From Candidatus Poribacteria bacterium (GTDB taxonomy: Bacteria > Poribacteria > WGA-4E > WGA-3G), in contig OZ219750.1 in NCBI GenBank assembly GCA_964291315.2, forward strand, positions 160,001 to 224,000: a stretch of DNA of 64,000 nucleotides. The letters are read 5' to 3'. How positions within the stretch are numbered: the first letter of the stretch is position 1; every line of letters begins with the position of its first letter. The notes under the pieces were generated by a model. That model was not told where the DNA came from, did not search any database, and saw only the letters and a program-made list of their open reading frames with translations. The translations under genes were made by a program, and so were the position numbers. Of this stretch, positions 9,468-44,451 are shown one piece after another.

Positions 9468-9620
9468 AGCTTTGCTGTCTAATACTTTTTAGGCTCAGGT
9501 GAATCGCTGAAAGGCACTGAAGATAGAATCCAAGGCGTGATGGCGAGTAAGCGTTTGCTTACTTACAGCTATCACGTCCTTTTATTTATTCTTAACTCCA
9601 CGGAGGACGATTTAGCACTA

Positions 9621-10091: not shown

Positions 10092-10127
10092 TTCTCCCCT
10101 CCGTATTATACCTTCTTGTCTGCTCTG

Positions 10128-13154: not shown

Positions 13155-13498
13155 GAAAACAAATTGACACATTCTGCTTTTTCTTGCTAGTTTTAACTTG
13201 TTTTATCTGCAAGTCTGTGATATACTTAAAAAAATAAAGGGACGTTCGCCTAATTTAGTTTGCGGAATTCCTGATTTGAACCGAATTTGATTTAACAACG
13301 TTTAAAATTGTTTAATGTTAGAATAGATTTCCCGTTTGGAAAGTCTCGTTTAAGCGAGTCATTTTTGTGTATCTACTAAAAGTACACTAGCTGGGGGAAT
13401 ATCCTAAATCCAAGTGTTTTTCCTTCAGACGAGGAATAGATCTTTGCCTAAAGGGCAGAGAGAAAACGTAAATACAAATGAATTGTAAGGAGTACCTT

Positions 13499-16644: not shown

Positions 16645-16716
16645 AAAACGCCCCAACCTGCCGGTTTAGCTAGCAGCGAATCAACGCCGATTAGCAGTCG
16701 GCGTTGGGGCGTTTTT
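16645..16716 (+). terminator. Hairpin with U-tract and alternative pairings, between the cohesin and dockerin genes
   Basis: aaaacgccccaac / gttggggcgtttt 13-bp inverted repeat; inner caacgccga / tcggcgttg stem; T6 tract. Confidence 0.5.
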
Positions 16717-16742
16717 TACATATACACAGAAGGAGACGTTTT

Positions 16743-29442: not shown

Positions 29443-30153
29443 TTAGTCTAGTGTCTCCCCTACTTTTAATGTGACAATTTCCACATCCTGAGAGCCGGTT
29501 AATTTACGGAGTTCTTCAGGGGTACCCGTTAGCATGGGGAATGTTCCGTAATGGATAGGTAAAATCGCTGGCACGTCAAGCAGTTGCGCTGCGTAAGCGG
29601 CTTCACGCGGGCCCATGGTGAAATGGTCGCCAATAGGAAGCAGGGCCAGATCGGGTTGGTAGATCTCACCGATAAGCCGCATATCCGCGAACACGTTGGT
29701 GTCCCCGGCGTGGTAAATTTTGTAACCGTTTCCGAATTCAATAACGTAGCCTGCGGGTTCCCCGAGATAGACCGTTGTCCCGTCTTCTTCCGTGAAGCTG
29801 CTGCTGTGGTTCGCTGATACCATGGTTGCCTTTATGTTGCCGACTGTGACGGTGCCGCCCTTGTTCATTCCAATAGTGTTTTCGACTCCTTGTTTGCCAA
29901 GCCATTCTGCGATTTCGACGATAGAGACGACTTTGGGCGTATATATTTTGGCAAGTGGTACAGCGTCGCTAATATGATCGGCGTGTCCGTGCGTAATAAG
30001 GATAACGTCGAGGCTGTTGAAGGTTTTGAGTTCATCAGGGCAGACAGGGTTTTGAGTTACCCACGGGTCTATGAGGAGCGTTTGTCTGTCTGCTTCGATT
30101 TTAAAGGTGGAATGTCCAAGCCATGTTAGGCGAATGCCGTTGTTGAGTTTCAT
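29443..30153 (-). CDS. Metal-dependent hydrolase, metallo-beta-lactamase fold (UPF0173-like)
   Basis: WLGHS, IDPW, THGHADH, HAGDT, PIHYGTFP. Confidence 0.9.
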   Translation of the reverse strand: MKLNNGIRLTWLGHSTFKIEADRQTLLIDPWVTQNPVCPDELKTFNSLDVILITHGHADHISDAVPLAKIYTPKVVSIVEIAEWLGKQGVENTIGMNKGGTVTVGNIKATMVSANHSSSFTEEDGTTVYLGEPAGYVIEFGNGYKIYHAGDTNVFADMRLIGEIYQPDLALLPIGDHFTMGPREAAYAAQLLDVPAILPIHYGTFPMLTGTPEELRKLTGSQDVEIVTLKVGETLD

Positions 30154-31271
30154 CGTTTGTTTTCCAAGATTTCCTTTAATCTATAGGCGATAATTTCTAC
30201 TTCTGCGGGCATTAGGGTTTGAGCGTTGATAAATATGCTGTTTGTGCCTGTGCTTGCAATGTCGATAGCAGGTTCGCCAGTTCGCAGCTGCTGGAGTATT
30301 TCGTTTCGTGTGATACCGAGTTGTTGTGGATCGAAGCGGATTTGAGTGCGGGGCATTGGTTGTCCGGCTTCAGATGGGAAGTTGCGCTGTACTGTGACAC
30401 CGTGGAGGTCCTTGAATACCTCGGTATAGTAAGTAACGTGATCTTCGTAAGCTTGTTGCAATTGTTCGTGATCTTGATTTAAGTACCATTCCACTGCGGA
30501 GAATAGTCCTACCAATTCTTCTTTGCCGACCTTCATCCCCCTGCCAATGAACGGGTGTGGTGGTCCATTGAAGGCGATAGCCTCAATCAGTGATTTTCTT
30601 CCGAGGATTAACCCGCTGCTTTGCGGACCTCGTAATCCTTTTCCGCCGCTAAAGAGTGCCAAGTCTGCGCCCATTTGTGTGAAACGCCATAAATTTTCTG
30701 GTGGTGGCAGCTGTGCGGCGGCATCAACGATAAGCCGGACATCGTGTTTTTTGGCAATAGCGATGGCTTGCTCATAAGGTATCCAGAGGTGTTCTCTACT
30801 TGGATTAGCGAAGTAGAAGATTGCGGCTGTTTTCTCGGTGATAGCGTTTTCGAGTTCGTCGGGTGTTGTCCCGTTTTCATCACCAATCTCTACGAATCTG
30901 ACACCGACCTGTCGCACTGCAAAATCGTATCCGACGCGCCCATGGCGATGTACGATGACCTCACTTTTCATTGAGTCGTCGAGGTGTGGTAATTTTTCGC
31001 GCTTCGTAGCATCGAGTCCAGTGATGCAAGCAGCGGTAGTGAGTGTCAAGGCGGCAGCGGCTCCACAAGAAACATATGCTGCCTCGTTGTGGGTAAGTTT
31101 GGCGATTTCTTCACCGACCCGTTTTTGGAGTTCGAGGATGTCTACGAAGTGTTTGGAGGCATCAGCCATCGCTGCGACGACCTCGGGGGGCATAATAGAG
31201 CCACCGAGCCGAGTGAGCGTTGCGTTTCCGTTAATAACTGTGCGGACGCCGAGGCGTTTGTAGATGTTCAT
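30150..31271 (-). CDS. SelA-like PLP-dependent enzyme (DgaE/selenocysteine synthase-like family)
   Basis: VINGNATLTRLGGS, VDAAA, FSGGKGLRGPQSSG, IGRGMKVGKEE; ATG start at 31271 preferred. Confidence 0.85.
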   Translation of the reverse strand: MNIYKRLGVRTVINGNATLTRLGGSIMPPEVVAAMADASKHFVDILELQKRVGEEIAKLTHNEAAYVSCGAAAALTLTTAACITGLDATKREKLPHLDDSMKSEVIVHRHGRVGYDFAVRQVGVRFVEIGDENGTTPDELENAITEKTAAIFYFANPSREHLWIPYEQAIAIAKKHDVRLIVDAAAQLPPPENLWRFTQMGADLALFSGGKGLRGPQSSGLILGRKSLIEAIAFNGPPHPFIGRGMKVGKEELVGLFSAVEWYLNQDHEQLQQAYEDHVTYYTEVFKDLHGVTVQRNFPSEAGQPMPRTQIRFDPQQLGITRNEILQQLRTGEPAIDIASTGTNSIFINAQTLMPAEVEIIAYRLKEILENKR

Positions 31272-31381
31272 GATTATGGCAGTCAACTTTCGGTCGATTG
31301 CGTGGTTTTAACAAACGTTTTGTCTAGCGCGAGGGTTGATGACTGCGGGCGGAGTCCGCCCTCTTGATGTCCAATTGCTAT

Positions 31382-32194
31382 TTATCCGACCTCTTGGCCG
31401 TCTAATTTACCGACAGAGAGATCAATTTCGTCGCGATTTTCGATTTTGTCTACCTTACCGTCCGCCATGTGGAAGATGCGATCGGAAACATCCAACATTT
31501 TGTGGTCGTGTGTTGCTGTAATGATGGTTACCCCGTTTTCAGCGTTGAGTCGGCGGAGCAGTGCTATGATTTCTAAGCCCGTTTTGGTATCGAGGTTCCC
31601 TGTTGGTTCATCGGCGAGGACGATGGCTGGGTCGTTCGCTAGGGAACGAGCGATCGCGACGCGCTGTTGTTGTCCGCCGGAGAGTTCTAAGGGTTTGTGT
31701 TGCACACGATCACCGAGGCCAACGAGTGAAAGTAGGTCAACCCCTTTTTCTCTGCTGTCGTCGGCACTGGTACCGGCAAAGATCATCGGCAGTGAAACAT
31801 TTTCGAGTGCTGTCATGACGGGAATAAGGTTGAACGCCTGAAAGATATAACCGATTTTTCGGCAGCGGAGCCAGGCGAGTTCGTATGCATCGAGTTGTGC
31901 GATGTCTACTTCATCAATGTAGACTCTACCTTCGGTGGGTTTATCGAGTCCCCCGATCATATTAAAGAGGGTTGATTTCCCGGAACCAGATGGTCCCATG
32001 ATAGAGATGTATTCACCGCGTTGGATTTGGAAATTGACCCCGCGAAGTGCATCAACGGTTTGTGTCCCCATCTCATAGCGTTTGATAAGGTTCCGTACGC
32101 GGACTGTGTTTTCTTTCGGCAGGATGCGTTGGAACTGTTCTGGTGTTTCGGTGAGAATTGGGTTAACATCGTTTATTTCTGTGGGTATATTCAT
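31382..32194 (-). CDS. LolD/MacB-type ABC ATP-binding protein
   Basis: GPSGSGKST, IGYIFQAFNL, LSGGQQQRVAIAR, LADEPTGNLD. Confidence 0.95.
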   Translation of the reverse strand: MNIPTEINDVNPILTETPEQFQRILPKENTVRVRNLIKRYEMGTQTVDALRGVNFQIQRGEYISIMGPSGSGKSTLFNMIGGLDKPTEGRVYIDEVDIAQLDAYELAWLRCRKIGYIFQAFNLIPVMTALENVSLPMIFAGTSADDSREKGVDLLSLVGLGDRVQHKPLELSGGQQQRVAIARSLANDPAIVLADEPTGNLDTKTGLEIIALLRRLNAENGVTIITATHDHKMLDVSDRIFHMADGKVDKIENRDEIDLSVGKLDGQEVG

Positions 32195-32232
32195 TTTTCC
32201 CCTTATGAGTAGTTAGCATTATTTTTTTTCGC

Positions 32233-32700
32233 TTACCGTCTCTGTAAGAATCCAAAGATGCCCTGTTTTTTAGGTTCGGGTTCTGGTGTTACGGGTGCAT
32301 TCTGGTGGTTGTCAGGGATAGCGAACCCGATGAAATTTCGTTTGCCGAGTTGCTGCATAAACGTAAAGAGGGATGTTTCTGCTTCTTTTCGAGTGAGTTG
32401 GTACTGATTTTGGACTCCTTTGATAATCTGTGAAATGGTATGCTTACCATCACACATTTTCCAGACGTAAGTTCCGATAGAATCCAGCACGATGACTCTT
32501 TTATTAGGGAGCATGAAGAATTTGCTAGCAAGTCGTACCCAAAGTTTGTCTTTCTGTGGAACGACAAGTGAGGCTTCTCCTTTGTCATCTATTTCCCATG
32601 TAATCAATTGATTTCGCACCGGAAACGATTTCATAACCTGTGTGCGGTCTACATCAGGGCGTTTCTTAAGCTTGAGGGTGTATAGGAGCTTGTTGATCAT
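32233..32700 (-). CDS. PqqD family / RiPP-recognition-element-like protein
   Basis: LDSIGTYVWKMCDGKHTISQII...EAETSLFTFMQQLGKRNFI winged-helix pattern. Confidence 0.75.
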   Translation of the reverse strand: MINKLLYTLKLKKRPDVDRTQVMKSFPVRNQLITWEIDDKGEASLVVPQKDKLWVRLASKFFMLPNKRVIVLDSIGTYVWKMCDGKHTISQIIKGVQNQYQLTRKEAETSLFTFMQQLGKRNFIGFAIPDNHQNAPVTPEPEPKKQGIFGFLQRR

Positions 32701-32749
32701 TTCATTCGTTATGGGTTATTTTATCTGACGGTTATGATGATAATAAGCA

Positions 32750-33790
32750 TTAATGGCATTCGATGCTCTCGGCGACTTTTTGTACAGTTGGATATGCATC
32801 GATATTACTGATGGACTGAATAACATAGATACGATTAGAATGGTTGCATCGCCATAGATGAAAGACAAGTGTTGTCCGTTTAGACAGTTTGTCAAGCACT
32901 AACACCGGTGTAAGCGGAACACTATCATAGAGTCGTGTCTGTTGTCCACTAAGGGTGAGGTGTTCATCTCCTGTGTCTGTGTGTGATTCTACTTTGAATC
33001 CGTAGCCGCGAATAGCTTTCGCATATTTGGCTCGGAACCATGCTTCAAGCGGATTTGGAGCTTCTTGATAGTCATTGAGCATCACCTCTGCGGGTCCGTA
33101 TCGTTCGACGCTGAGACTGCCTTTGTCAGGTAGCCGGGTCTGCTTGTTTTGAGTTTGAGATGCCGCGTTGTTCTGTAGCCGGTTACTTGTCGATTTAGCA
33201 AGTTGCATAACCCTTTGAAAATGTTCTTTTTTTGCAACGAAGGCAAATAGGAGATAACCGCTGAGCAGTTTTTGGCGTTCCAATTTATATTCTCTGGGGA
33301 CGCTGAGTTTAAGTCCATAAGCACTCCAGAGCGTTTGTGGTGTGCCGGTGTTGTCTGTAATTGACTGAAAGATTCGTAGGACTGTGGGTCGCCAGTTCTC
33401 TTTGAGCCGTCCCATTACTTGTACAATTGTAATCCGTTTTCCGGCATGGAAGATCAATCCGTTGGCCCGAATGCTGCCCTTCCAACTAAAACCGAGGACG
33501 GTGCGTCCTTCGAAGAACATCGGGTCTTTGATGAGGTTAACATTCCGCCGAAAGGAGAGCTCGGTGCCTTTCTTGTAGGTTTTGCGAATCAGCTTGAAGT
33601 ATTCGTCAAGTGTTGCATGAAGGTCCGGTTTTTTACGTCGGGTGTTTGCCCATTTGAGTTCAAGACGCGGCATATCTCCATCGTCGAGTCGCAGGTAACC
33701 TGTTTTCTGATCTCCGCTGAGTCCGCTGAGTTCCCATGTTGTTGGGATTTCGAGTTGTATGCCTGCCCAGCCAAAAACAGTCCAATCCAT
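32750..33790 (-). CDS. Hypothetical protein of the giant-permease operon
   Basis: 346-aa ORF co-oriented in the operon; two similar halves (FGWAGIQLEIPTTWEL / WSAYGLKLSVPREYKL). Confidence 0.75.
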   Translation of the reverse strand: MDWTVFGWAGIQLEIPTTWELSGLSGDQKTGYLRLDDGDMPRLELKWANTRRKKPDLHATLDEYFKLIRKTYKKGTELSFRRNVNLIKDPMFFEGRTVLGFSWKGSIRANGLIFHAGKRITIVQVMGRLKENWRPTVLRIFQSITDNTGTPQTLWSAYGLKLSVPREYKLERQKLLSGYLLFAFVAKKEHFQRVMQLAKSTSNRLQNNAASQTQNKQTRLPDKGSLSVERYGPAEVMLNDYQEAPNPLEAWFRAKYAKAIRGYGFKVESHTDTGDEHLTLSGQQTRLYDSVPLTPVLVLDKLSKRTTLVFHLWRCNHSNRIYVIQSISNIDAYPTVQKVAESIECH

Positions 33791-33912
33791 TTTTTATTGG
33801 CGGTCGGCGATTAAAGGTTAGCGATTGGAAACCAATCTCTAACCCATAATTGCTGACTGTTAACCCCTATTTGTCATTTCTCTGACTGTTGACTGTTGAC
33901 CGCTGATAACTG

Positions 33913-35901
33913 TTAAAACGGTTTCACAATGACGGCTTTGGAAACAAGAGCAATTGCGACGGTTCCCATGCCTATGAGACCGACTCCACAGGCGAATCCT
34001 GCTGCAAGCACTGGATTAAACATGTACCAGCGCCGCATTCCGAATCTTTTGATCATATAGAACCGCCCGATGATTGCGCCGAGGAGCCGTGTAATCATAC
34101 TTCCTGGGTCTCCTCCGATACCGCCAACGATGCCGTAGTACCACATTGAAGGCAGTTTGAAGATCCAAAGCATACCGTAGATTGCCAGGCTTGAAGTGAG
34201 TCCAGCGGCAACATAGTCCCCGCGAATGGCTTGGAGCATTTCGCTATTCCCGTCTCGGAGAGATGTTTTCAGGAGACATTCGTTTGTGGCATTAATCGGC
34301 CACATCATCTGGGCAAATGGGTACTGTGCACTGGGAATGGGCGCTATTTTCCAGATAAAGTGGAGTACCACAATACCACTGACGAGCAAGATCGGCATTA
34401 TCAAGAGTGTGCCTGCAAGATTTGAGGTAAAGGTTGTCCCGGTCAGTTCGAGGACTCGCCATCCCTGTGTGCCTCGTCCATAATCCTCGTCCGGTAGTGG
34501 TGCAAACCAGATATCTACCTCTTCGTAGCGACTCAAAATAAACGTAATTTCGTGTAGGTAAGGTAGTTCAAAGAGGTCCCGTCCCAAGACACCGAAGGTC
34601 CGTGCAGTGATATATGAATTAATCGGTGTGTAGAGGAAAGCATAGCCGATCAGGAAGCTGATTGGGAAATTTGGAACCATCCAGTGAATAAGCCACACAA
34701 AGCCGCCCATCCCGAGGAGCCACATTAATCCCATTAACCAGATTGGAAAATCGCCGCGGTTTGGAGGGGTCGCGAGGGAACCTCGTTGACCTGCTTTTTT
34801 CTGAGTTTTCCGTAGTTTAACGACCATGGGAATTGAAGCGGCGAGTCCAACAAGCGCGAGGCTAAAGGATTTACCCATGCCATAACTAATCCAGAAGTCC
34901 AGGTTGTTGAACAAGGTGACGCCGCGGACATCCAACCCGGGTGTCCACTGGTTAAGGATCTCATAGCGGTATAAGATTTGCGGGTTCAAGATAAATTGAG
35001 ATGCCATTGCGGTGAGGAACTCTGTCATAACGACTGGGAACGGCAGCACGAACCCAATGAGCATCTGTCCAAAGTCAGTTCGGAAAGCGAAGACACCTGT
35101 TGGTGCGAAACCTTCAATACTTTGCGTGAAGTCTATCCACGGAATTTTCAGGATTTGGATGGGTTGGCTCATCATAACCCCAGTTAGTGAAGGCACCCCG
35201 ATATAGAGAAAGCCCCAGATTAATCCTGCCATAGAGCCGATGGAGAAGACTCGCCATCGCCATGTTTCTTCTTTCCCGGTGGTTTCTGCTAGTGCGGTTG
35301 CTCCCTGGGCGGCAATTGGGGCCATCGGGTATGGGAGTCGCTCTAGGTCAGCCGTGAGGCGAAATAAGATATATTGCCCGCTGACAAACCGCAAGGTGCC
35401 GAGCAGCTTCCCGGCGAGGTAGACGGCGATAGGCAGCAACCAGTCTGGATGCAACAGGCTTCGAGTGAGCACCCCGACGGAATCTCCTGCTGGCACGATC
35501 CATTCCGGGATTTTGTCTGCGATCTCATAAGAAGCGGCTTGTGGTGTATTGACAAAGTAGGCGTACCAGATAAAGTTCCGGTATTGTAGCCCGCTGCCGA
35601 CAGCCGCTCCTGTTAAGGAGAGGAGCATATAGAGCTCCTGCCGTCTTGCTGTTGTAAAGGAGCGCCGCGCGAGTTCGGTAAATAGAATAACGGCCACCCA
35701 AGGTGCTGCTTCAGCACCGGATTGACCGGATACGTAACTGAGATAAATGGCGCCTGGCATCATCAGCAAGCCAACGAAGAGTGCTCCGAGGAACACCTTG
35801 ACCGTTAAGCCCGACTCGAAGGTACGGATACCTCCTTCAATATCGTATCTTTGTGCCCAAGCTTGCCACTCATCTGCTTGTGATACTCTTTCTCTCGCCA
35901 A
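33913..35901 (-). CDS. OPT-like polytopic membrane protein (putative peptide transporter)
   Basis: Many TM segments; GLTVKVFLGALFVG and ERLPYPMAP resemble OPT family motifs; AGGAG RBS. Confidence 0.65.
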   Translation of the reverse strand: MARERVSQADEWQAWAQRYDIEGGIRTFESGLTVKVFLGALFVGLLMMPGAIYLSYVSGQSGAEAAPWVAVILFTELARRSFTTARRQELYMLLSLTGAAVGSGLQYRNFIWYAYFVNTPQAASYEIADKIPEWIVPAGDSVGVLTRSLLHPDWLLPIAVYLAGKLLGTLRFVSGQYILFRLTADLERLPYPMAPIAAQGATALAETTGKEETWRWRVFSIGSMAGLIWGFLYIGVPSLTGVMMSQPIQILKIPWIDFTQSIEGFAPTGVFAFRTDFGQMLIGFVLPFPVVMTEFLTAMASQFILNPQILYRYEILNQWTPGLDVRGVTLFNNLDFWISYGMGKSFSLALVGLAASIPMVVKLRKTQKKAGQRGSLATPPNRGDFPIWLMGLMWLLGMGGFVWLIHWMVPNFPISFLIGYAFLYTPINSYITARTFGVLGRDLFELPYLHEITFILSRYEEVDIWFAPLPDEDYGRGTQGWRVLELTGTTFTSNLAGTLLIMPILLVSGIVVLHFIWKIAPIPSAQYPFAQMMWPINATNECLLKTSLRDGNSEMLQAIRGDYVAAGLTSSLAIYGMLWIFKLPSMWYYGIVGGIGGDPGSMITRLLGAIIGRFYMIKRFGMRRWYMFNPVLAAGFACGVGLIGMGTVAIALVSKAVIVKPF

Positions 35902-36001
35902 ATTGAATGTTCTCCTTTTATTCGTTATCGGTTGTTGGTAAGAGATATTTCTTTTTGGGAACCAACAACTGATGCCCGATAACTAATTCTTCTTGTCGTC
36001 T

Positions 36002-36178
36002 TCACTCTTCAGAGCCATCGGTATCTCGTAATTCTTCCCAGAAGTGTGCGGTGAAGATGCCAATTGTCAACACGAGTGCTGAGAGCATTTGCCACTGCCA
36101 CCGTCCTTCGAGAACGAGAATACTGAACAGCCATAAGAGGGTGCCAATAATGATGATAAAACCTGCTAATTTTTCCAT
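36002..36178 (-). CDS. 58-aa two-TM membrane peptide (below the ORF track cutoff)
   Basis: Manual translation MEKLAGFIIIIGTLLWLFSILVLEGRWQWQMLSALVLTIGIFTAHFWEELRDTDGSEE; fills the operon gap on the same strand. Confidence 0.6.
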   Translation of the reverse strand: MEKLAGFIIIIGTLLWLFSILVLEGRWQWQMLSALVLTIGIFTAHFWEELRDTDGSEE

Positions 36179-36305
36179 TTCTTATCGCTTTCGGTTCCTG
36201 AAGCGTTCGGCTGTGCTTCATTCGCAGCGTTTGGCAACCTGTCTGTATGTGTTGCGATACGATCTGCTGACAGCTGAAAGCGGGGTTCCGAGTGCTATTC
36301 CTCCT

Positions 36306-39300
36306 TTAATCTGCGGGTGCTAGGATGGGGTCGAGCTGTTCTGTTGCTGGTGCGTCGGTTCCTTCCGTTCTACCGCGTTCATGGAATTCTGCCCGGATAT
36401 CAACACTGAATGTCCGCCAAATTAGAAGTTGTTTCCGCAGTAGGTTGAGGAAACGTCGGTTTACACGTTTCCAAGAGGCGATCTCGCCACTCTCGCGATG
36501 CACATCGAGTGTAATTTTATAGAGGTCTTCCTCTTCGCCGCCTACAGGGGATGTAACGAATTGTATGGACTGGCTTACCCCTAAGTCATACGGTGCTAAC
36601 CATACCATCATGCCAATCTGGTAGGCATCTTCGCCTTCGGATTCTATAGTACTGAATGCGACCTGGTCGGTATAGAAATCGCTAGCGGACTCGTCTGAGT
36701 GTGCCTCGAAATAGTCGCGCATAAACACATTCAAACCGAGTGCTTCCTCTTCAAGGACGGTGAATGGGAGATTGAAATGCCATACATCCCCTTCGGGTTC
36801 TGGGAGTTTCCATTTGCGTTCGATGTCGGGTACCGCCATGCGTGAAGCCTTGAATGCCGGATACATGGTACTGAGTAAGACGACGAGCATGACGATAATT
36901 GTTGCGACGACAGTTGACATTGAGGAATAGTTGAGTGTTAATCCGGCAAGCCATCCGAAGCTTACGAGCGTTGTTGCGATTGCTTGCCCCATGAGGTAGC
37001 CTAGAACGGCCCCGACGATAGCATATACGCATGCCTCAGCAAAGAATAGGAAGGCGATGTGTATCGGGGCGAGTCCGACAGAGCTGTAGATACTGATCTC
37101 TCGAACACGTTCATAGACTGCGCCAAGCATCGTGTTGAGAACGATAAGTGCAGCGATGAGAATCGGAACGAATAGGTTACCCATGCCGCTGAAACTCGTC
37201 ATCCCGATACTGCTGTAAAGATATGTGTCTTTATCCCGTCCTACGAAGAAGTCGAGAGCGATCCGGTTCATGAGCGGTGCCATGATGAGGTCTAACTTAT
37301 CAATGGCGCTTAACAACTTCGGGTCATTTTCTTGTGGTTCCATGTTAACAGCGACGCTTCGGAGGGTGCCGCCTTGGTTCATAACCACATCATATGGAAG
37401 AATAGCGACGCTGTCCGGCGTGAGGTGGAGATATTTCTGTAATTCACCTTCGAGTGTTTCATCGCCGGTTGCCCCCCGGCTGCGTTGTTGTTGCATCAAC
37501 TGATAATCAACAGGCGTTAGTTCTTCGCCATCATTGTCTGTGAGGTCCTTGAAACCGATGCCGAGGACACCGACAACGGTGAAGTCTGCGCCGTAGACGG
37601 AGACAGTTGCTTTTCCCATGTCACTTTCCGTGATTTTCAGTAGTTCTGCCATTCCTTTGGGTAGCACGATAGCGTAGGGCCATTCTGTTGGCCAGTTCTG
37701 GGCATCTGCGGGCTCGAACCATTTTCCGTACTGCAGGTATCTGTTGATACTACTGACCTCGGGTTCTGCTTCGCTCATTCCGACTAGCATATTTGCTGCA
37801 AAAGTTAGTGCTTCCCCTGTGAGTGCATGTGTTGGTGGTGCTGGGTCTGCGGAATTTGCTGTCCGTGTAAGTTGAACGAAGGATTGGTCTCCAGTACCTG
37901 AAGATTGATACCATGCGCGTGGTGCGATGGAATTCCGAACGATTACGACGGCTTCCTCATCTACCTGTTCAATGAAGCCGCCTTGTTCTAAGGCTGCTCG
38001 GGTTTCTGCAATATCAACGGGCTGTTGTCCGTCCTTGATAAGGCGTTCATTTTTCCGTTCTAGGAGGCGTTCGAAGGCGGTAACGGTGATTTGCGTCTTT
38101 TGCAGGTCGTTCAATACGGAGGTAAGCACAGGTTCCTCTAGGGGTCGCCAGTATTGATCTCGTATGAGGAGACCTGTGTAGCGAGGGGTTACCTGCGGGA
38201 GGCTTGTTCTATTCGGATGCATAAACGTTCGAACAGAAGTAAAGGAAATGACAGTAAACGTGAGGATAACCAATGTACAGCAAGTTAGGATTGTTCTTCC
38301 TTTCCGTTTTCGCATGTTGGAAATTCCAAGGCTGAAGGCTGCAGCACTTGCGCTCAGTCTACCAACGTCTGCTTTGTAGACTTTGCTGCCCTCCTGTCGA
38401 ATCTTTTCGAGTTGTTCCTCGAATTTTCGGACAATGATAAAGATAACAATAACCGTCAAAGCAAGCACAACGAACGCTATTAGGATAATTACCGGGGTTG
38501 TTGTAATCTGGAATGCCGGATGGACCTGGCTTAGGAAGAAAAACACGAGTAAAAAGATTCCAAATGAGCCTAGAATCTGTTTATGGATGTTAGGGAAACC
38601 GAAGATGAGGCGTTCCATGAAGTAAGCAAAAGGCATCAACAAGGCGAGGTAGAACATTACACCGTTGACAACATCGTTGCCGGTCTGTTTGACATCGGGG
38701 TATGCGCGTGATTCGTAGCCCCAGGCGGCGCGTGCAAGTTTGAGTGCTTGCTGGTAATCATTTTGTAATAGCTCAGTCTCTGCGCGTGCGAGATAATCAT
38801 TCGCGAACTGGTGGAGTTTGTCTAGGCGGTCACTAGAGATACCGAAACGTTTATAGAGTTGTGATCGGTTTTCATCGAGCCACCACATGTCGCGAACGAC
38901 GACATAAGGCGTGAGGCGGATTCGTCCGTTCTCACGGACGACAAATCCTTCGCCGGTGTAAAGCGTTGGGTTTTTCATACCGCTCTTCGTGGCTTTAATA
39001 AGTAAGAGGCGTTTACCGATTTGTCCGTAAGCCATTCCGACTTTAATCCGGGTATTTGGTTCGCTATAAACGAGGGCAATTGGTTCGGCTGCTGAGACTC
39101 CTTCCTGCTGCCACGGTTTTGACATTCCAAATTTCTCTGGTGCACTATCGGTGAGGGCATCATAAATTTCAAGTTCGCGAAGAGTTCTCAAATACCGCTG
39201 ATCCACCAGATCATAGATAGTTGTGGAGACACATGGGAATGTGACGACCCTACAACCGCGTCTGCGCGTGTTGATTGGGATTTGGTTAGGGAGCAGTTTC

Positions 39301-42300
39301 GCGCCGTAATCCCCTAGATCGGGGGCATAGACTATGTCCCCGGAGTGTGGGTCAAGAATGTATGCTTCGACTTCTTGCACTCCGCCAAGACGGCGTGTAG
39401 CTCTGCCTTCCATGGCTAACCCGGCAACTTCGAAATTTCCTTTGTTATCTCCCATCACAAACAAGTCTCCGCGCACTCCCATCATGCTTTTATGCTTTCT
39501 TCGGAGTGTCAGGATAGGGTAAGGTACTGGTTTATTCGGTAGTGCGGACTCGCGGGCATCAAACTCAACAACATCGCCGAAGAGATTGCAATAGAAATTT
39601 CCGACGCGCGCGGCGGTCGGCATTTCTTCATCGCGGAGTGCTTGGATGAGTAATGATGCTAGGGTTTGTGCCTGTTGGTGGAGGTTGCCGCCTTCGCGCA
39701 GATCGACTCGTTCAATGGTGTCGAGGGGTGTATCGGTTAAAACGCGTGCATCCTCAATGGTTGCGAAAGCGATGCCAGTCTTTCCGACGAGTGTTGCGAC
39801 TTCGCTGTCGAAGGCAATCTTGCCGGGAATATAGGTTTTCCACGTTTTCCCGCCACTTGCTGAGATAGCATTCACAAAGTTTGAATCCCCGCCGAGCCCC
39901 GCGATTGAAATGAGGGTTTTAATGTCGTCGATTTCGTCATCAGAGAAGGTTTCAGGGTCCTCGTGTCGGAGGCGGAGCATTGCGTCCAGTTGTTCGCGCG
40001 TCCGAATGTTGTTTTTTCGATTCTTCTTTGCAGTGCGGACATCGTTTCGAATGAAGCGTTCAACCTCTTTTCGGATATAATCCATATCCTTGAGCATGTC
40101 CTCGGAGGGTTCGCCTTGGTTACGCCACTGCTCAAACTGCATTTTCATCAAGCGGCTCACCCCACTGAGCCCGGTGAGCTTCCCGAAGTGTGAGCTGAGC
40201 AAAGTTTCAAGGGTTTTTCCTTCGAGAGCCGATTTATCGGAGATTCCGTCTGCAACAGTCCATTGGCGTTCCATAACAGCTTGTCGAATCTGGTCATCTG
40301 TCCATTGCCAGAGTTTTCGGACGCGAACCCCGAAGTCAGCATCTTCTGCGTAGGAGGCGAGTTGATTGCCGATGCTTGCAAATTCACGACGTAGGACGAA
40401 TTCAGGTTGCTGGTCATAGAACCACCCTTTATTGAAGACCCCGAACTGATTGGACTGTGAAGAGAGATCAATGCTAACATAGAGAGAGGTATAGTAGCGA
40501 TTGAAGAGGTCTTGCAGAGCGATAGCGGCTTCGATTTGTCCAAGTTTCCGATTATATTCACCTGTATCAATGCGGAGCATCTTTTCAACGCGGCTTTGGA
40601 TGTTGCGAAATCGCGCGTTTCGGAGGGTTAGCAGGTTATCTCGCAAAAGCACCTTCGTTTCTGCATCGAGGTCGGTGTCGAGTGTAGGCAACCTTTCCCT
40701 GAGATTTTCAAGTGCTACGATGTCCGATTCTGCGCGTTTTTTGGCGGTTTCTAGTAGTTCTGTTTCGATAATGTGTGATGCGATCTGAGCGCGTAAGCTA
40801 AGTATTTGCTCCACTTCACTGTCTGAGAGGTAATTTTTCAAGATAAGTTTTTCTTCGGCGAGGTGTTCTCTTCCGAGCGTTCCGGCGGTTGCGATTAAGT
40901 TCTGAATACGCGTTCGCTCCAAGCGCGCGTTTCGAAGTCCGATTTCAAATATACTCTGCTTGTCTTTGAGCAGATCTGCGATTAAGACAGCAGCATCAGA
41001 AGAGTCATTGGATTCGGTTAAGCGTTGTCGGAGTTGTGCGTCGATAGAGTTCAACCGTTCGATACCGGCTTTGGAAATAAATTTCCCGCTGTAGAGTAGG
41101 GGGCTGTTGGTGTCTTGAGACGAGGGCGTTTCCTTGAGTTTGCGAATACTCGTCTTAATCTGGTCTTCAAAAGACTGGCTATCAGGGATTTTGACTAAGA
41201 CTTTTTCGAGGAGCTGGACTTCCGCTTGAATAGAGATCTGTTGGGATTGGTCGGATTTACGTAGAATGCTCCGAGCGTTTTTAGCTTCATCAAGCCCATG
41301 TAGATCAAGGTGCCTGTCCATTATTTTTTCAGGTGTCCACATTAGGGCAAATTTGCGTTTATCCGCCATCTCCCAGTCTGCAAGTGTCTGGTTTAGCATC
41401 TCAATGTCTGGGATGAGTTCTTTTGGGAGGTCCTGCGGAACTGGGATTTTCCATTCTGATCCTTGCTTTATAGGCATTAGATATGCTTCGTTTGGATGCG
41501 TAGCATATTTATCAGCAGTATTGGTTTTTATGGCATGAGTGAGTTTTCCTATAGCCCATGTGTCAAGTCGGGCGATCGGTAGTGCGACTGTTTCGATGAG
41601 TTCACGTTGTGCTATTCGGCTTGTGTTCAGGGCAACGGCGCGAACATCGGCCAACTCCTTGACAATATCCCGTAGGAAGTGCGTTGTTTGTAGTGTTTCC
41701 TTTTTTGACCGTGCAAGGTTCGCAAGTAATATGCTTTTTTCTTCATCAGTGAACTCTTGTTTTTCGCGTTTCCGGTTTCTATCGGCTTGTTTTTTCTGGC
41801 GTTCTGAAAAGTCGCGCTGTCGGTTTGTAAGGTCTTCGATCTCGGCGCGAGTTTCTGCCAAGCCGTCTAAGGTGGTCATCAGGGATTCTAGGTCAGATTT
41901 TACTCTATGTATGCCGTGGAAGAAATCAGAGGGGAGATCAACTAAGACGCTTCGATCGATTGAGAGCAAGAGTCTTCTGCCCAATTCTTCGAATTCGATA
42001 ACGTCTGTGGAGAGGCCGCGGCGTAGCCCGTGCATGGTCGGTGTTCCGGGAGAATCTGTGTCGCTGCCAACAATATCCTGGCCAATCCCTTCCATGAATG
42101 CGCGCATGCCAGCGAGTCCTTGAAAGTGTCCGTCGACTGCGACAAAAAGCACAGAATAACCCGGCCGGTATTGGGGAAGGCTGAAGAGTCTCGCTAGTTC
42201 CATGAGGGTGGCAATACCACAAGTCGGATCTGCTCCAGGGGCCATAGCAGGTACAATGGACATAGAATCATAGTAAGCAGTGAGGACGATGAGTTCATCG

Positions 42301-43664
42301 CGTAGGTTTGGGTTGCCGCCTTCCAAAAAACCGCGTATATTCTGACCGACGCGGCGTTCCCACGTCATCTTACCTCTGACACGAGCATTTACCTGATTTC
42401 CTGTGTTATGTTCTTGTTCAAGCAGATTCTCGAGGAAAGCAGCGTCATCTTTAGAGATCCAAAATCGCGGTATATTGGCGGGAACTGTGCCGAATTTGTT
42501 CTCTGCTTCTCCACGGATGGTTGTTTCGGGTTCAATGAAGATAATAGCGGTACCCCCGAGCATTGCTGCGTTGATATAGCGGGTACTGGAGTTAAAATCG
42601 AGAAGAACGATAGCGCCCTTTGGTATGAAGATATGTGCTTCGCTGGCAGCGACAAATTCGCCGTCTTCATCGGTTTCTCCGTTATTGTTATTGTCTATAC
42701 CGTCGGTGGCATCTCCAGAGATTTCGTCTGTCCATCCATCAGCGTCATTGTCAATGCCATCTGTTGCCCATCCGCGGATCTCGGAGAGCAATGGGATTTC
42801 CCCGTATTCATCGATAGTGCCGTCTTCATCATTGTCTATGCCGTCGGATGCTTTCTGCAGGTGTTCGTTGAGCACATCATCGGTAATACTTGCTTCGGTG
42901 ATGAGGTAACGTCGAGCGAGCGATGTAAGCGTATCTCCTTCTTGGAGTTTATACCAGAATCCGCCGATATTGGTGTTGTTAAAGTCTGCGAGTTCGCCAT
43001 CATCGCCGTAAAGGAGGGGCCCAGAGAGACCGCCTGTGGGAATGAATACGCTATTTCCTTCCACAACGGGAGATGGCAGAAATCTGTTTCGTTCATCAGT
43101 GAGAATTTCTTCCTCGGGGATGTCATAACTGGCTGCGATGATTTGGAGCGTCTCGCCTTCAAGAACGGTGTGCTTAATACTATCTGCTAATAAAGAAGTT
43201 CGGACGAGATTTGGCCAGAGAGGTGTGAGTTTGAAACTGTGTAAGACAGTCCCCTCAGGCGAGATTATCTCAATGATGCTATCCCCTTGATCAACTGGAA
43301 CAGTAACAGGAAACTCACGACTTTCCACGTTTTGCAAACCGATTTCGACGAATCTGTCAAAGATGTACTTGCTGCCGCTTGCGGCCTGTGGGTAACCTGT
43401 CACGCGGCTCTCTAAACTTGACAAGCGTGCGATGTCCTTCCGGATGTTGCCGATGGACATGTCATCTCGGATCTGAATGGCTGCTGCGGTTGACATCCCG
43501 GTGCTAGGAACCGTTTGCGGATATGTCTTGGGTACACTACTAGCGAGTAGAATAGAAAGGCTTAAAAATATTAAGACGTGTCTTGCCCGCGAGGATCGCA
43601 CGGTTGAGTCTGTTATGGTACTGAAACGTCGCGAATAATATTCACTCCTATTATGGATTCTCAT
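36306..43664 (-). CDS. 2452-aa membrane protein: degenerate M28-like ectodomain with two LysM, DGIDN Ca-binding repeats and helical insert, followed by TM block and FtsX-like permease
   Basis: SRVTGYP; HTVLEGETLQIIA and YKLQEGDTLTSLA (LysM); DGIDNDxDGxxDE x3; AYYDS..PGAD..LFVAVDGH; NMRKRKGRTILT; LNTMLGAVYERVREISIYSSVGLAP. Confidence 0.8.
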   Translation of the reverse strand: MRIHNRSEYYSRRFSTITDSTVRSSRARHVLIFLSLSILLASSVPKTYPQTVPSTGMSTAAAIQIRDDMSIGNIRKDIARLSSLESRVTGYPQAASGSKYIFDRFVEIGLQNVESREFPVTVPVDQGDSIIEIISPEGTVLHSFKLTPLWPNLVRTSLLADSIKHTVLEGETLQIIAASYDIPEEEILTDERNRFLPSPVVEGNSVFIPTGGLSGPLLYGDDGELADFNNTNIGGFWYKLQEGDTLTSLARRYLITEASITDDVLNEHLQKASDGIDNDEDGTIDEYGEIPLLSEIRGWATDGIDNDADGWTDEISGDATDGIDNNNNGETDEDGEFVAASEAHIFIPKGAIVLLDFNSSTRYINAAMLGGTAIIFIEPETTIRGEAENKFGTVPANIPRFWISKDDAAFLENLLEQEHNTGNQVNARVRGKMTWERRVGQNIRGFLEGGNPNLRDELIVLTAYYDSMSIVPAMAPGADPTCGIATLMELARLFSLPQYRPGYSVLFVAVDGHFQGLAGMRAFMEGIGQDIVGSDTDSPGTPTMHGLRRGLSTDVIEFEELGRRLLLSIDRSVLVDLPSDFFHGIHRVKSDLESLMTTLDGLAETRAEIEDLTNRQRDFSERQKKQADRNRKREKQEFTDEEKSILLANLARSKKETLQTTHFLRDIVKELADVRAVALNTSRIAQRELIETVALPIARLDTWAIGKLTHAIKTNTADKYATHPNEAYLMPIKQGSEWKIPVPQDLPKELIPDIEMLNQTLADWEMADKRKFALMWTPEKIMDRHLDLHGLDEAKNARSILRKSDQSQQISIQAEVQLLEKVLVKIPDSQSFEDQIKTSIRKLKETPSSQDTNSPLLYSGKFISKAGIERLNSIDAQLRQRLTESNDSSDAAVLIADLLKDKQSIFEIGLRNARLERTRIQNLIATAGTLGREHLAEEKLILKNYLSDSEVEQILSLRAQIASHIIETELLETAKKRAESDIVALENLRERLPTLDTDLDAETKVLLRDNLLTLRNARFRNIQSRVEKMLRIDTGEYNRKLGQIEAAIALQDLFNRYYTSLYVSIDLSSQSNQFGVFNKGWFYDQQPEFVLRREFASIGNQLASYAEDADFGVRVRKLWQWTDDQIRQAVMERQWTVADGISDKSALEGKTLETLLSSHFGKLTGLSGVSRLMKMQFEQWRNQGEPSEDMLKDMDYIRKEVERFIRNDVRTAKKNRKNNIRTREQLDAMLRLRHEDPETFSDDEIDDIKTLISIAGLGGDSNFVNAISASGGKTWKTYIPGKIAFDSEVATLVGKTGIAFATIEDARVLTDTPLDTIERVDLREGGNLHQQAQTLASLLIQALRDEEMPTAARVGNFYCNLFGDVVEFDARESALPNKPVPYPILTLRRKHKSMMGVRGDLFVMGDNKGNFEVAGLAMEGRATRRLGGVQEVEAYILDPHSGDIVYAPDLGDYGAKLLPNQIPINTRRRGCRVVTFPCVSTTIYDLVDQRYLRTLRELEIYDALTDSAPEKFGMSKPWQQEGVSAAEPIALVYSEPNTRIKVGMAYGQIGKRLLLIKATKSGMKNPTLYTGEGFVVRENGRIRLTPYVVVRDMWWLDENRSQLYKRFGISSDRLDKLHQFANDYLARAETELLQNDYQQALKLARAAWGYESRAYPDVKQTGNDVVNGVMFYLALLMPFAYFMERLIFGFPNIHKQILGSFGIFLLVFFFLSQVHPAFQITTTPVIILIAFVVLALTVIVIFIIVRKFEEQLEKIRQEGSKVYKADVGRLSASAAAFSLGISNMRKRKGRTILTCCTLVILTFTVISFTSVRTFMHPNRTSLPQVTPRYTGLLIRDQYWRPLEEPVLTSVLNDLQKTQITVTAFERLLERKNERLIKDGQQPVDIAETRAALEQGGFIEQVDEEAVVIVRNSIAPRAWYQSSGTGDQSFVQLTRTANSADPAPPTHALTGEALTFAANMLVGMSEAEPEVSSINRYLQYGKWFEPADAQNWPTEWPYAIVLPKGMAELLKITESDMGKATVSVYGADFTVVGVLGIGFKDLTDNDGEELTPVDYQLMQQQRSRGATGDETLEGELQKYLHLTPDSVAILPYDVVMNQGGTLRSVAVNMEPQENDPKLLSAIDKLDLIMAPLMNRIALDFFVGRDKDTYLYSSIGMTSFSGMGNLFVPILIAALIVLNTMLGAVYERVREISIYSSVGLAPIHIAFLFFAEACVYAIVGAVLGYLMGQAIATTLVSFGWLAGLTLNYSSMSTVVATIIVMLVVLLSTMYPAFKASRMAVPDIERKWKLPEPEGDVWHFNLPFTVLEEEALGLNVFMRDYFEAHSDESASDFYTDQVAFSTIESEGEDAYQIGMMVWLAPYDLGVSQSIQFVTSPVGGEEEDLYKITLDVHRESGEIASWKRVNRRFLNLLRKQLLIWRTFSVDIRAEFHERGRTEGTDAPATEQLDPILAPAD

Positions 43665-43863
43665 GTTGTAAAGTCTCCCACCTCTCTCATATTTATTGTT
43701 TTTTATCTTTGCTGCGCAAAAAACACGTATAAAAGGCTATGTCATGTGTGAAGGCACCACTAGCATACATATCACAGAATGAAGGGCGCTTTACCTGATT
43801 TTTGGCAATTTCTTTCTGATCAGCGGCCTACTGATACCGTATTAAAAAGCGTAATAGCGATAT

Positions 43864-43891
43864 TTTATACTATTACGATAAATTTTGTCAA
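43864..43891 (-). promoter_or_regulatory. Candidate sigma70 promoter for the giant-permease operon
   Basis: Minus strand TTGACA-16 bp-TATAAA in the AT-rich divergent intergenic region. Confidence 0.45.
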
Positions 43892-44049
43892 ATTAAAATT
43901 TGCATTTAAGGCATTTTTAGATTAAAATACAATTCATGTTTTTCTCAATTAAAATGAAAGTCTCTATAAGCTTGTATATTGATCTTCTAAAATTAAAAAA
44001 ACAGCCGCAATAATACAGTGCCTCTTATAGACACATAGAAGGAGTCAAC

Positions 44050-44451
44050 GTGGACAAGGGATCGAAAGAATTAGAAAGAATTAGCAAAGTCGTCTCACGT
44101 ATAAAGTTGCGTCGTCGTGAATTAAATATGACGCAAACGGATCTTGCGAATGTAGCGAATTTAACGCCAGCTGCAATCTCACAATTTGAATCAGGAACCC
44201 GTAAACCTTCCTTTAATACGCTTTTAAGTCTTTCTGACGCTCTAAAAGTGACAACTGATTATCTACTTGGAAAGCAAGAGAGATGCTACGAGGATCTCTT
44301 AGCTGATCCGAAGATAAACATTATGCTTAGAGGTATGATGGAATTCACTGAGAAAGACAAAGAGACGCTCTATGAGTTCTATGAATTTCTCAAGACGAAA
44401 GCGGCCGCGGTAAAGGGGTCTGGAAAGGAAACATGCTCAGATTCAGAGTAA
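44050..44451 (+). CDS. XRE/Cro-type HTH transcriptional regulator
   Basis: RRRELNMTQTDLA..ISQFESGTRKPS..L.DALKVTTDYLLG; AAGGAG RBS. Confidence 0.9.
   Translation: MDKGSKELERISKVVSRIKLRRRELNMTQTDLANVANLTPAAISQFESGTRKPSFNTLLSLSDALKVTTDYLLGKQERCYEDLLADPKINIMLRGMMEFTEKDKETLYEFYEFLKTKAAAVKGSGKETCSDSE

Follow-up and report, generated by a model that had tools for sequence, protein, structure and literature searches.

We analysed a 64,000-nt stretch of contig OZ219750.1 from a Candidatus Poribacteria assembly (4.40 Mb in 4 contigs, 95.2% complete), hereafter the window, and found that a block of six co-oriented genes in it very probably specifies the greater part of an envelope system, conserved and uncharacterised, of the type VII (MacB/FtsX-fold) ATP-binding cassette (ABC) kind. 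Along the minus strand, the genes encode a giant protein of 2452 aa, a 58-aa membrane peptide, a 662-aa polytopic protein (the OPT-like protein), a 346-aa two-domain protein, a PqqD-like protein, and a LolD/MacB-type ABC ATPase, and they diverge from a gene for an XRE-family helix-turn-helix (HTH) protein (Table 1). A preliminary description, made from the letters of the window alone, had listed these genes; all of the open reading frames (ORFs) were found where it had placed them, and the domains it had assigned to each were upheld by Pfam, NCBIfam, and fold searches. The block is real rather than a chance grouping of genes, its conserved core is the giant together with an OPT-superfamily permease, and the cluster is an undescribed variant of the type VII ABC systems. 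The earlier statement that the set fits no known pathway also stands, in that no characterised transporter or paper matching it was found. Our literature search, which had ~ 1.7 million PubMed Central articles and subscription journals outside its coverage, returned no paper on this gene combination, on DUF6785/DUF6784, or on Poribacteria FtsX systems.

The type VII assignment is based on three features that we found together: a four-helix FtsX module, a core domain between its first and second transmembrane (TM) helices, and the motifs of a cognate ATPase. Pfam matched FtsX to residues 2166-2276 of the giant (E 5.1e-12, 46.4 bits, cut-off 25.5), MacB_PCD fell under its curated cut-off of 27 (E 0.0017, 19.1 bits), and the PDB sequence matches of the giant included LolC, MacB, YtrF, and Nicalin. 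A structure model of residues 1340-2452, built with 32 orthologues, had a predicted local distance difference test (pLDDT) value of 76.9 and a predicted template modelling (pTM) score of 0.42, so its single domains can be trusted and their mutual placement cannot. Compared with known folds by VIA-align, the modelled FtsX module matched YtrF at Z 18.7, 5xu1 at 17.6, MacB at 17.4, HrtB at 15.6, FtsX at 15.6 (root-mean-square deviation, rmsd, 3.0 over 164 residues), LolC at 14.8, YbbP at 14.0, and BceB at 9.5, with the FtsX matches ranging from Z 13.9 to 15.6 at low rmsd. For the core domain (model residues 483-809), the match was 3ftj, the periplasmic domain of MacB (Z 12.2; rmsd 3.9 over 189 residues), and Foldseek on the model returned MacB at E 7e-11. 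The ATPase matched Pfam ABC_tran (E 6.5e-35) and retains an intact Walker A motif (GPSGSGKST), signature (LSGGQQQR), Walker B motif (LADEPT), and H-loop; its top NCBIfam models are of the LolD, DevA, MacB, and FtsE types, all under their equivalog cut-offs.

Around this module, the giant begins with a Sec-type N-terminus and an exported head, spans the membrane with seven TM helices in all, and ends in a tail on the cytoplasmic side. The periplasmic β-rich domain (model residues 20-138) had borderline transthyretin-like matches (Z 8.5-9.1), and a profile search of residues 1340-1665 against PDB sequences gave nothing with E <0.5. Three extra TM helices (model helices 298-348, 354-381, and 385-421) precede the FtsX module, and their motifs YPD, F-Y..L..PF..ERL, and HPAF are invariant columns across the 32 orthologues. 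The C-terminal domain, modelled with the layout β-α-β4-α2, had no PDB sequence match; its fold matches, of the Bet v 1/AHSA1/START-like and KA1 types, were borderline at Z 8.0-8.7, a level that the search tool calls common. The predicted topology is self-consistent: the head would lie outside, the three extra helices would return the chain to the inside, the FtsX module would run in-out-in, and the tail would stay inside.

The genes remain linked in other genomes, and neither of the two findings that the preliminary description had named as refuting it (loss of this linkage and a match to a characterised transporter) was obtained. We searched species-representative genomes with an alignment of 15 homologues of the OPT-like protein, and at least 602 stretches matched the search patterns, 579 of which encode a relative. 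The best 80 yielded 77 loci. Fifty-six of these are referred to here as Poribacteria-type (51 so titled, and 5 titled 'uncultured bacterium' with 64-80% identity and a long giant), and the remaining 21, from Armatimonadota, 'Zipacnadia', WS1, Abditibacteria, Planctomycetota, and Nitrospiraceae records, as other loci. Gene presence was scored by tblastn with the window's proteins, and only testable loci enter the denominators. The closest homologues and loci carry the title Candidatus Poribacteria. In 55 of 55 Poribacteria-type loci, the giant gene precedes the OPT-like gene. The distance between the two is at most 3.5 kb in 52 of them and 3.5-4.4 kb, again with both genes on one strand, in the other three (L024, L047, and L051), where a second OPT-like gene occupies the gap in two cases. 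The genes for the 346-aa protein, PqqD, and the ATPase follow the OPT-like gene in order in 52 of 52 loci. The 58-aa ORF is present in 52 of 55 Poribacteria-type loci (identity down to 44%) and in none of 20 others. The divergent XRE gene, which the preliminary description had called a regulator and which may act locally as one, is present in the window, but its conservation is limited: 22 of 48 Poribacteria-type loci retain it, and none of 12 others does.

Beyond Poribacteria, the giant/OPT-like pair spans five other phylum-level groups. In 13 of the 19 loci testable there, the OPT-like gene is immediately preceded by a giant that is shorter (1,520-1,900 aa); this count includes one locus added by hand (L072), where the giant overlaps the start of the OPT-like gene by 19 nt. 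Six loci have no adjacent giant (L076, L077, L079, L083, L084, and L085). A further search covered the genomes of five of them (all but L084), and in each of the five, one to four full-length giants were found elsewhere. These five genomes contributed 12 giant loci, and 8 of them have a DUF6785/DUF6784 gene, an OPT-like gene, or both alongside. In a Nitrospiraceae locus, the gene order is DUF6785, DUF6785, giant, OPT-like.

We also observed some variation in the layout of Poribacteria clusters. Among the clusters at L047-L051, L053, and L067 (~ 7300-10000) and at L024, L026, L028, L035, L036, L038, and L045, some have a second OPT-like gene between the 58-aa and OPT-like genes, and in others the cluster genes are spaced out by 1.5-5 kb of additional DNA without a change in their order. 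In L052, the 346-aa orthologue (12795-13844) is broken by an in-frame stop into ORFs of 156 and 190 aa, which makes it either a pseudogene or an assembly error, and PqqD and the ATPase are two abutting ORFs.

The preliminary description had treated the six genes as the entire machine, and this did not hold. In each of five genomes from other phyla, the window's ATPase has a single orthologue at 67-74% identity (next-best ATPase at most 52%), and this orthologue adjoins a minimal FtsX of 220-280 aa in all five, with PqqD also alongside in four. Weak partial matches to the 346-aa protein were found at the ends of three of the five stretches, which are short. These minimal-FtsX/ATPase modules are unlinked to the one to four giants of the same genomes, and the PqqD protein, and apparently also the 346-aa protein, belong with them. 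The module and the giant come together in a single Armatimonadota operon (L075), which holds the giant, OPT-like, 346-aa-like, PqqD, minimal FtsX, and ATPase genes, and in three WS1 records with the order minimal FtsX, ATPase, giant, OPT-like. Given this linkage in other phyla, the six-gene set lacks one membrane subunit, and the minimal FtsX is probably the missing partner of the window's cluster. It is found in none of the Poribacteria-type cluster loci. In the window's genome, a minimal FtsX of 225 aa with ~ 45 periplasmic residues is encoded on another contig than the cluster (G000:C4:1035957-1036631), and is 49% identical to that of L075. The gene after it encodes a second LolD-type ATPase, which shares 61% identity with the window's (L141:679-2175, G000:C4:1034457-1038125). 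The window's ATPase is 74% identical to the L075 ATPase, and the second one 63%. Of 61 genomes of the window's phylum, 60 have a single copy of the minimal FtsX, which is distant from the giant whenever both are on one contig.

Three products of the block, the 58-, 662-, and 346-aa proteins, have no Pfam or NCBIfam matches. The 346-aa protein, which is cytoplasmic, with no signal peptide, and has no PDB sequence relative, gave a model (17 sequences) with pLDDT 85.7 and pTM 0.81. Its N-terminal domain is predicted to have a PsbP/Mog1/DcrB-like fold, with matches to CyanoP at Z 14.0 (rmsd 2.9 over 138 residues; far higher than the unrelated entries), Mog1 at 10.8, DcrB at 10.7, and the type VI chaperone SciW at 9.9, and Foldseek on the model returned PsbP (E 1e-5, probability 1.00). 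The second α/β domain is similar to the first (Z 8-8.8). As modelled, the fold would be a generic protein- or peptide-binding scaffold. The 155-aa protein carries a PqqD domain (PF05402, E 1.5e-11, 44.9 bits, cut-off 23.4), and every NCBIfam PqqD-type model falls under its cut-off on it. The 58-aa protein has two hydrophobic helices and an acidic tail.

By its sequence, the 662-aa protein appears to be a distant relative of the OPT superfamily, and we do not call it a member of PF03169. It has 371 homologues at E ≤0.001. Pfam OPT (PF03169) matches 3 of 15 aligned homologues nearly end to end (best 7.2e-8), and an Armatimonadota orthologue falls just short of the cut-off (24.3 bits; 25.8 required). 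A profile search of the family alignment against PDB sequences found no solved relative. A kinship with the DUF6785 permeases is suggestive: hhalign lines up an E-[RK]-L-P/x-[FY]-P motif in both families, and two DUF6785 copies of the window's genome match Pfam OPT at E ~ 2e-5. This genome holds 19 DUF6785/DUF6784 paralogues of 630-695 aa, all on contig C4 (loci L116-L134; for example, C4:394148-395623 and C4:2779768-2781246), and DUF6785 had no match in any of 14 model control genomes. Fourteen of the 19 paralogues lie no more than two genes from catabolic enzymes. Their neighbours include sulfatases, FGE, xylose-isomerase-like TIM barrels, MR/MLE dehydratases, GFO/IDH/MocA, KduI, PhyH, GHMP kinases, and GHL10.

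At one of these loci (L123:4993-10307, C4:2621700-2633200), a DUF6785 gene is followed by genes for an ABC ATPase (7077-7853) and an M28/PA/TFR_dimer protein (8187-10307, minus strand). The parts of the giant, namely, an M28 domain and an ABC link, recur here as separate genes beside a DUF6785 permease, and this M28 domain is a true one.

The head of the giant is related to M28 peptidases. Pfam matched Peptidase_M28 to residues 442-525 (E 4.1e-7, 30.4 bits, cut-off 21.3), covering only profile positions 1-78 of 193, and the best solved sequence match of the head was Nicalin (E 1.2e-5), with leucyl aminopeptidases at E 5e-4 to 7e-3. The sequence has the M28 fold and lacks the co-catalytic zinc ligands and the general-base glutamate. 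Relative to bacterial leucyl aminopeptidase, GGHLDS is replaced by TAYYDS and AAEEVG by DGHFQG; in that enzyme, the first of these motifs contains the first His ligand, and the second contains the Glu-Glu pair, one Glu being the general base and the other a ligand. At the M28 catalytic positions, His has become Tyr464 and Glu-Glu has become Gly-His513, and the motif holding the last M28 His reads TDTPLDT. Tyr464, Asp466, His513, and Asp1066 are invariant in six diverse orthologues, which argues that the pocket has been remodelled and conserved rather than decayed. Judged by these residues, the head is M28-like and putatively non-catalytic, with a remodelled metal site. The short orthologues begin with ordinary signal peptides, which places the head in the periplasm.

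An alignment of six orthologous giants, two from Poribacteria and four from elsewhere, separates this shared domain from what is added to it. A block rich in aspartate (~ residues 160-345) is present in the two Poribacteria rows and absent from the four others. It holds the LysM motif (Pfam E 4.1e-8, residues 238-261, 33.5 bits, cut-off 20.9), a second LysM-like stretch, and three D-rich, putatively calcium-binding repeats of the DGIDN type. A charged insert of ~ 500 residues, which appears helical or coiled-coil in character, is likewise present in both Poribacteria rows, with nearly empty columns in the other four, and a further insert (~ residues 1100-1250) has the same distribution. Four features are additions specific to Poribacteria: the LysM motif, the repeats rich in aspartate, the charged insert of ~ 500 residues, and the 58-aa peptide. 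Decorations of the head differ by lineage, with LysM here and Big_5 in 3 of the 8 longest relatives, a pattern expected of a binding head. In P0260, P0267, and P0268, which are among the longest relatives (2,769-3,053 aa), N-terminal Big_5 Ig-like domains replace LysM.

The family to which the giant belongs is large and unstudied. With a profile of its C-terminal domain as the marker, 1,573 proteins were matched at E ≤0.001, and 1,390 at ≤1e-10, in a representative library of 1.84 billion proteins; the 1,573 are protein clusters at 50% identity. The marker domain is C-terminal in all but a few of the 150 matches listed. Full-length carriers are 1,450-3,050 aa long, and shorter entries resemble fragments. 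Among the 8 longest carriers, FtsX was found in all 8, M28 in 6, and Big_5 in 3, and no OPT or DUF6785 domain was found in any; a search for longer proteins with the 662-aa query also found no giant/OPT fusion, which is weak evidence. Public entries for the giant are annotated only as 'hypothetical protein', as 'M28 family peptidase', or as 'LysM peptidoglycan-binding domain-containing protein'. The same marker found the giant in 98 of 101 genomes of the window's phylum (95 of the 97 high-quality ones), with one copy per genome except for two in one family. A second phylum, represented by genome G001, has it in 33 of 33 genomes, mostly in three copies; records of this phylum carry the titles Latescibacterota, Gemmatimonadota, or plain 'bacterium'. 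Giants number one to seven per genome, and in the G001 phylum the minimal-FtsX/ATPase module is unlinked to them.

Enzyme genes accompany several of these modules. In the window, a DgaE-family enzyme dependent on pyridoxal phosphate (PLP) and a metallo-β-lactamase (MBL)-fold hydrolase are encoded downstream of the ATPase in the same orientation. Both genes recur at this place in 32 of 49 testable Poribacteria-type loci, and their products may act on the substrate of the system. In the G001 phylum, every paralogous module has a catabolic enzyme of its own: an amidohydrolase/deacetylase (NF006689, 372.7 bits, cut-off 371) lies between the giant and OPT-like genes of one paralogue class in 3 of 3 genomes, and a sugar-epimerase-like TIM barrel adjoins the giant of another class in 3 of 3. 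TIGR01437-type PLP enzymes and EF_0837-type amidohydrolases are presumably frequent neighbours in other bacteria, which would link the Poribacteria and G001-phylum sets.

We tentatively favour the reading that the system performs ATP-driven capture of a nutrient in the periplasm and hands it over to an OPT-fold importer. The giant would pair with the minimal FtsX encoded on the other contig beside the second ATPase, and with two ATPase subunits, and ATP binding and hydrolysis would set the core domain and head in motion through mechanotransmission of the kind used by MacB, LolCDE, and FtsEX. As a module that binds without cutting, the head would capture a periplasmic or wall-associated organic substrate, possibly amino-sugar- or peptide-like, and pass it to, or gate, the OPT-fold permease. 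The permease would bring the substrate into the cell, where the neighbouring enzymes, here the DgaE-family enzyme and the MBL hydrolase, would break it down. The PqqD-like and PsbP-like proteins could act as adaptors or regulators on the cytoplasmic side, and the minimal FtsX/ATPase/PqqD/PsbP-like set could form a motor that several giants share. A specific and hitherto unrecognised uptake mode, in which a shared FtsX-type motor with its PqqD-like and PsbP-like adaptors and interchangeable dead-peptidase giants load proton-driven OPT-fold permeases by ATP-driven movement, is possible but doubtful. Uptake is preferred over envelope export because of the catabolic neighbourhoods of the DUF6785 permeases, the enzymes in paralogous modules, and the downstream DgaE and MBL genes. 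OPT/Yellow-Stripe-like (YSL) carriers are known as importers. The preliminary description had suggested an energised system for capture and either import or export, putatively of peptides, glycopeptides, or envelope polymers; an energised system of this kind is compatible with our data. If the giant/OPT pairing is physical, it would extend the known range of type VII ABC mechanotransducers and offer a way into the nutrition or envelope construction of these uncultured bacteria; if the uptake mode is true, a type VII mechanotransducer would serve import, with one motor for several substrate-specific modules.

Several observations weigh against this reading. No type VII ABC system is known to serve import, and OPT/YSL transporters are known to be proton-driven and to need no ATPase. 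The window's 662-aa protein has no PF03169 match even at E up to 1, and the hhalign comparison of its family with DUF6785 (536 columns, E 2.9e-4) has a probability of 40.6%. With 19 DUF6785 permeases and one giant in this genome, most OPT-superfamily permeases must work without a giant of their own, and 4 of the 12 giant paralogue loci mentioned above (L096, L101, L104, and L105) have no OPT-superfamily neighbour, L104 being cut by a contig end. The near-universal, fixed copy number (98 of 101 genomes; 33 of 33, mostly with 3 copies) fits envelope housekeeping equally well, the neighbouring enzymes vary between lineages with none defining a substrate, and any role assigned here to the cytoplasmic tail, the 58-aa peptide, PqqD, or the PsbP-like protein is guesswork. 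Direct contact between the giant and the OPT-like protein, for which the preliminary description had proposed a complex prediction, received only weak support from one. Residues 1640-1905 of the giant and the OPT-like protein scored 0.32 (runs 0.32, 0.25, and 0.34), and the best of three controls scored 0.00; the runs share at least 61% of contacts, with partner pLDDT of at least 63. In calibration, 116 of 157 solved complexes attained the score mark, as did 2 of 215 mismatched pairs; at scores of 0.60 or lower, only 18 of the 157 attained it, together with both of those mismatches. The prediction used alignments built for this analysis, so these counts apply only approximately. With the strong conserved adjacency as a prior, the predicted contact is mildly favourable.

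Other readings of the system were weighed against capture and uptake. It is unlikely, though not strikingly so, that the MacB-like module instead pulls a hydrophobic or lipid-anchored envelope component from the inner membrane, as LolCDE, HrtBA, and YbbAP-TesA do, with the OPT-fold protein as flippase or feeder and the head handing cargo outward. The characterised type VII systems all act outward or within the envelope (PMC12646458, PMC8333309, PMC5985334), as this reading would have it. The START/Bet v 1-like and KA1-like fold matches of the tail also point toward it, although they are borderline (Z 8.0-8.7) and at the level called common. The family is core, with a copy number fixed within phyla, and some loci lie among housekeeping genes such as those for MreB, RNase G, YceG, and AlaRS. 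The neighbourhoods annotated hold no LolA-like, HlyD membrane-fusion, or outer-membrane-factor gene, however, the known OPT-family members are importers, and catabolic enzymes are embedded in the paralogous operons. Efflux of the MacAB-TolC kind was rejected because no HlyD or outer-membrane-factor gene occurs in the neighbourhoods annotated. Quite unlikely, in our view, is a regulator of wall hydrolysis akin to FtsEX, in which the dead-enzyme head and helical insert mimic EnvC, PcsB, or CwlO, LysM fixes the head to peptidoglycan, ATP cycles activate a hydrolase, and the OPT-like protein recycles muropeptides. Such a role would account for the LysM motif and long charged insert, for an inactive peptidase-like domain (analogous to the degenerate LytM domain of EnvC), and for the FtsX fold matches given above, and the downstream DgaE-family enzyme hints at amino-sugar-acid chemistry. 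Since LysM and the insert are absent from four of four non-Poribacteria orthologues, however, they cannot define a conserved function. The loci annotated show no linked gene for an amidase, an M23 protein, or any further wall hydrolase; an unlinked partner is possible. One to seven copies per genome with differing enzyme neighbours are unlike a division role.

It is improbable that the giant acts purely as a sensor, like BceAB, reading substrate load or permease flux and controlling OPT-fold transporters or signalling without handling cargo. The ratio of one giant to 19 DUF6785 permeases in this genome, the large conserved tail, the adaptor-like PqqD and PsbP folds, and the presence of BceB among the fold matches (Z 9.5) are what a regulator might show. 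Against this, no histidine kinase or other signalling partner is conserved beside the cluster, a lone PAS kinase occurs in one WS1 locus, and the XRE gene is divergent in only 22 of 48 testable Poribacteria-type loci. We consider highly improbable a system for ribosomal-peptide export or immunity in which the PqqD-like protein recognises a leader peptide and the 58-aa product is the precursor. The PqqD match (E 1.5e-11), a weak likeness to lasso-peptide, ScmD, and GeoRSP chaperones, and the bacteriocin- and darobactin-export families among the NCBIfam matches of the ATPase point toward it. The preliminary description had reported no radical SAM enzyme or other maturase of ribosomally synthesised and post-translationally modified peptides (RiPPs), and indeed none was found by Pfam in the window or in the related loci annotated. 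The 58-aa product is a two-helix membrane peptide confined to Poribacteria-type loci, all NCBIfam PqqD-type scores are under their cut-offs, and PqqD adjoins minimal FtsX and ATPase genes where no small ORF or maturase accompanies them. The PqqD protein, which had been described as the peptide-binding RiPP recognition element (RRE) of this cluster, thus travels with the ATPase/minimal-FtsX module and has no peptide precursor to serve. A RiPP system was therefore rejected, the partnership of PqqD with a precursor peptide and a maturase being absent from the loci annotated.

Coordinates of the cluster, of the parts of the giant, and of adjoining features are collected in Table 1. The promoter-like site listed there was the top consensus match (11/12) of a promoter scan and serves as a pointer only, given that the scan found 25 sites in total against a shuffled mean of 18.4 (standard deviation 4.4), which is close to chance. 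Site numbers in the promoter and terminator scan were about those expected from shuffled sequence, and no Rfam family was found within the window at gathering thresholds.

Table 1. Features of the gene cluster and its immediate surroundings (positions within the window; residues refer to the giant protein)
Feature	Position	Strand	Remarks
XRE-family HTH gene, divergent from cluster	44050-44451	+	133 aa ORF; Pfam HTH_3 E 7.2e-15
Promoter-like site TTGACA-18-TAAAAT	43862-43891	-	~ 200 bp upstream of giant gene
Giant protein gene	36306-43664	-	2452 aa ORF
LysM motif	42882-42953	-	residues 238-261, in Poribacteria-only insert
N-terminal half of M28-like domain	42090-42341	-	residues 442-525, altered metal-site residues
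Long charged insert	40515-41987	-	~ residues 560-1050, splits M28-like domain
Periplasmic β-rich domain and three-helix stalk	38655-39593	-	residues 1358-1670; pLDDT mostly 80-92
Three extra TM helices before FtsX module	38385-38756	-	residues 1637-1760
MacB/FtsX-fold module	36837-38351	-	residues 1772-2276: amphipathic helix, TM1, periplasmic core domain, TM2-4
C-terminal cytoplasmic α+β domain	36309-36818	-	residues 2283-2452, family-specific
58-aa protein gene	36002-36178	-	ORF
OPT-like protein gene	33913-35901	-	662 aa ORF
Two-domain protein gene	32750-33790	-	346 aa ORF
PqqD/RRE-like protein gene	32233-32700	-	155 aa ORF
LolD/MacB-type ABC ATPase gene	31382-32194	-	270 aa ORF
DgaE-family PLP-dependent lyase-like enzyme	30150-31286	-	TIGR01437 E 5.9e-72, under cut-off
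MBL-fold hydrolase	29443-30153	-	NF001911 E 4.1e-84, above cut-off

Elsewhere in the window, an ordinary MacB-type permease of 411 aa (18961-20196, plus strand) lies between two GFO/IDH/MocA-type genes with no ATPase adjacent; the nearest ABC ATPase (23080-24096) is of the DrrA/GldA type. Two large Eco57I/PglX-like DNA methyltransferase genes were observed at 5800-8070 and 25921-28794, both on the plus strand, the former resembling BREX PglX (E 3.6e-26, under the family cut-off). Three large proteins look exported: a 1031-aa spondin-domain protein (13478-16573, plus strand), a choice-of-anchor V protein (16704-17843, plus strand), and a 1265-aa protein of no family with only a weak CARDB match (47136-50933, minus strand).

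When set beside known proteins, the head resembles Nicalin and the transferrin receptor/GCPII-type M28 proteins, in which catalytic residues are likewise replaced and the domain putatively sits outside the membrane in a membrane complex. It differs from them in being fused to an ABC permease, in having its own conserved replacements (Tyr464 and His513), and, in Poribacteria, in being split by the ~ 500-residue insert; the likeness does not imply functional homology with Nicalin. The 662-aa protein is similar in length (~ 650 aa) to the OPT/YSL (PF03169, TC 2.A.67) and DUF6785/DUF6784 permeases and is polytopic like them, whereas it falls under PF03169 detection, has no solved sequence relative, and is always tied to an FtsX-type giant. 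No characterised OPT member is known to have such a tie. ABC importers with substrate-binding proteins and tripartite ATP-independent periplasmic (TRAP) transporters offer an analogy only: under capture and uptake, a periplasmic binding module would feed a permease here as well, yet no homology is involved, and here an FtsX-type motor would power the binding module, with a secondary OPT-fold carrier as the permease.

The closest comparison is with the type VII ABC systems, including MacAB-TolC, LolCDE, FtsEX-EnvC, YbbAP-TesA, HrtBA, and YtrEF. These have in common the four-helix FtsX fold, in which the core domain is inserted after TM1 and before TM2, and a separate LolD/MacB-type ATPase, as is also the case here (Z 14-18.7 in the fold comparison), and the probable heterodimer of the giant with the smaller FtsX, which gene linkage suggests, would resemble LolC/LolE. 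In contrast to them, the giant adds ~ 1,650 periplasmic residues of head and stalk before its TM region, three conserved TM helices, and a 170-aa cytoplasmic tail. No equivalent of a membrane-fusion protein, LolA, EnvC, or TesA is linked to the cluster, whose obligate genomic partner is instead an OPT-superfamily permease, with PqqD-like and PsbP-like companions. Finally, in some phyla, one ATPase module is common to several unlinked giants.

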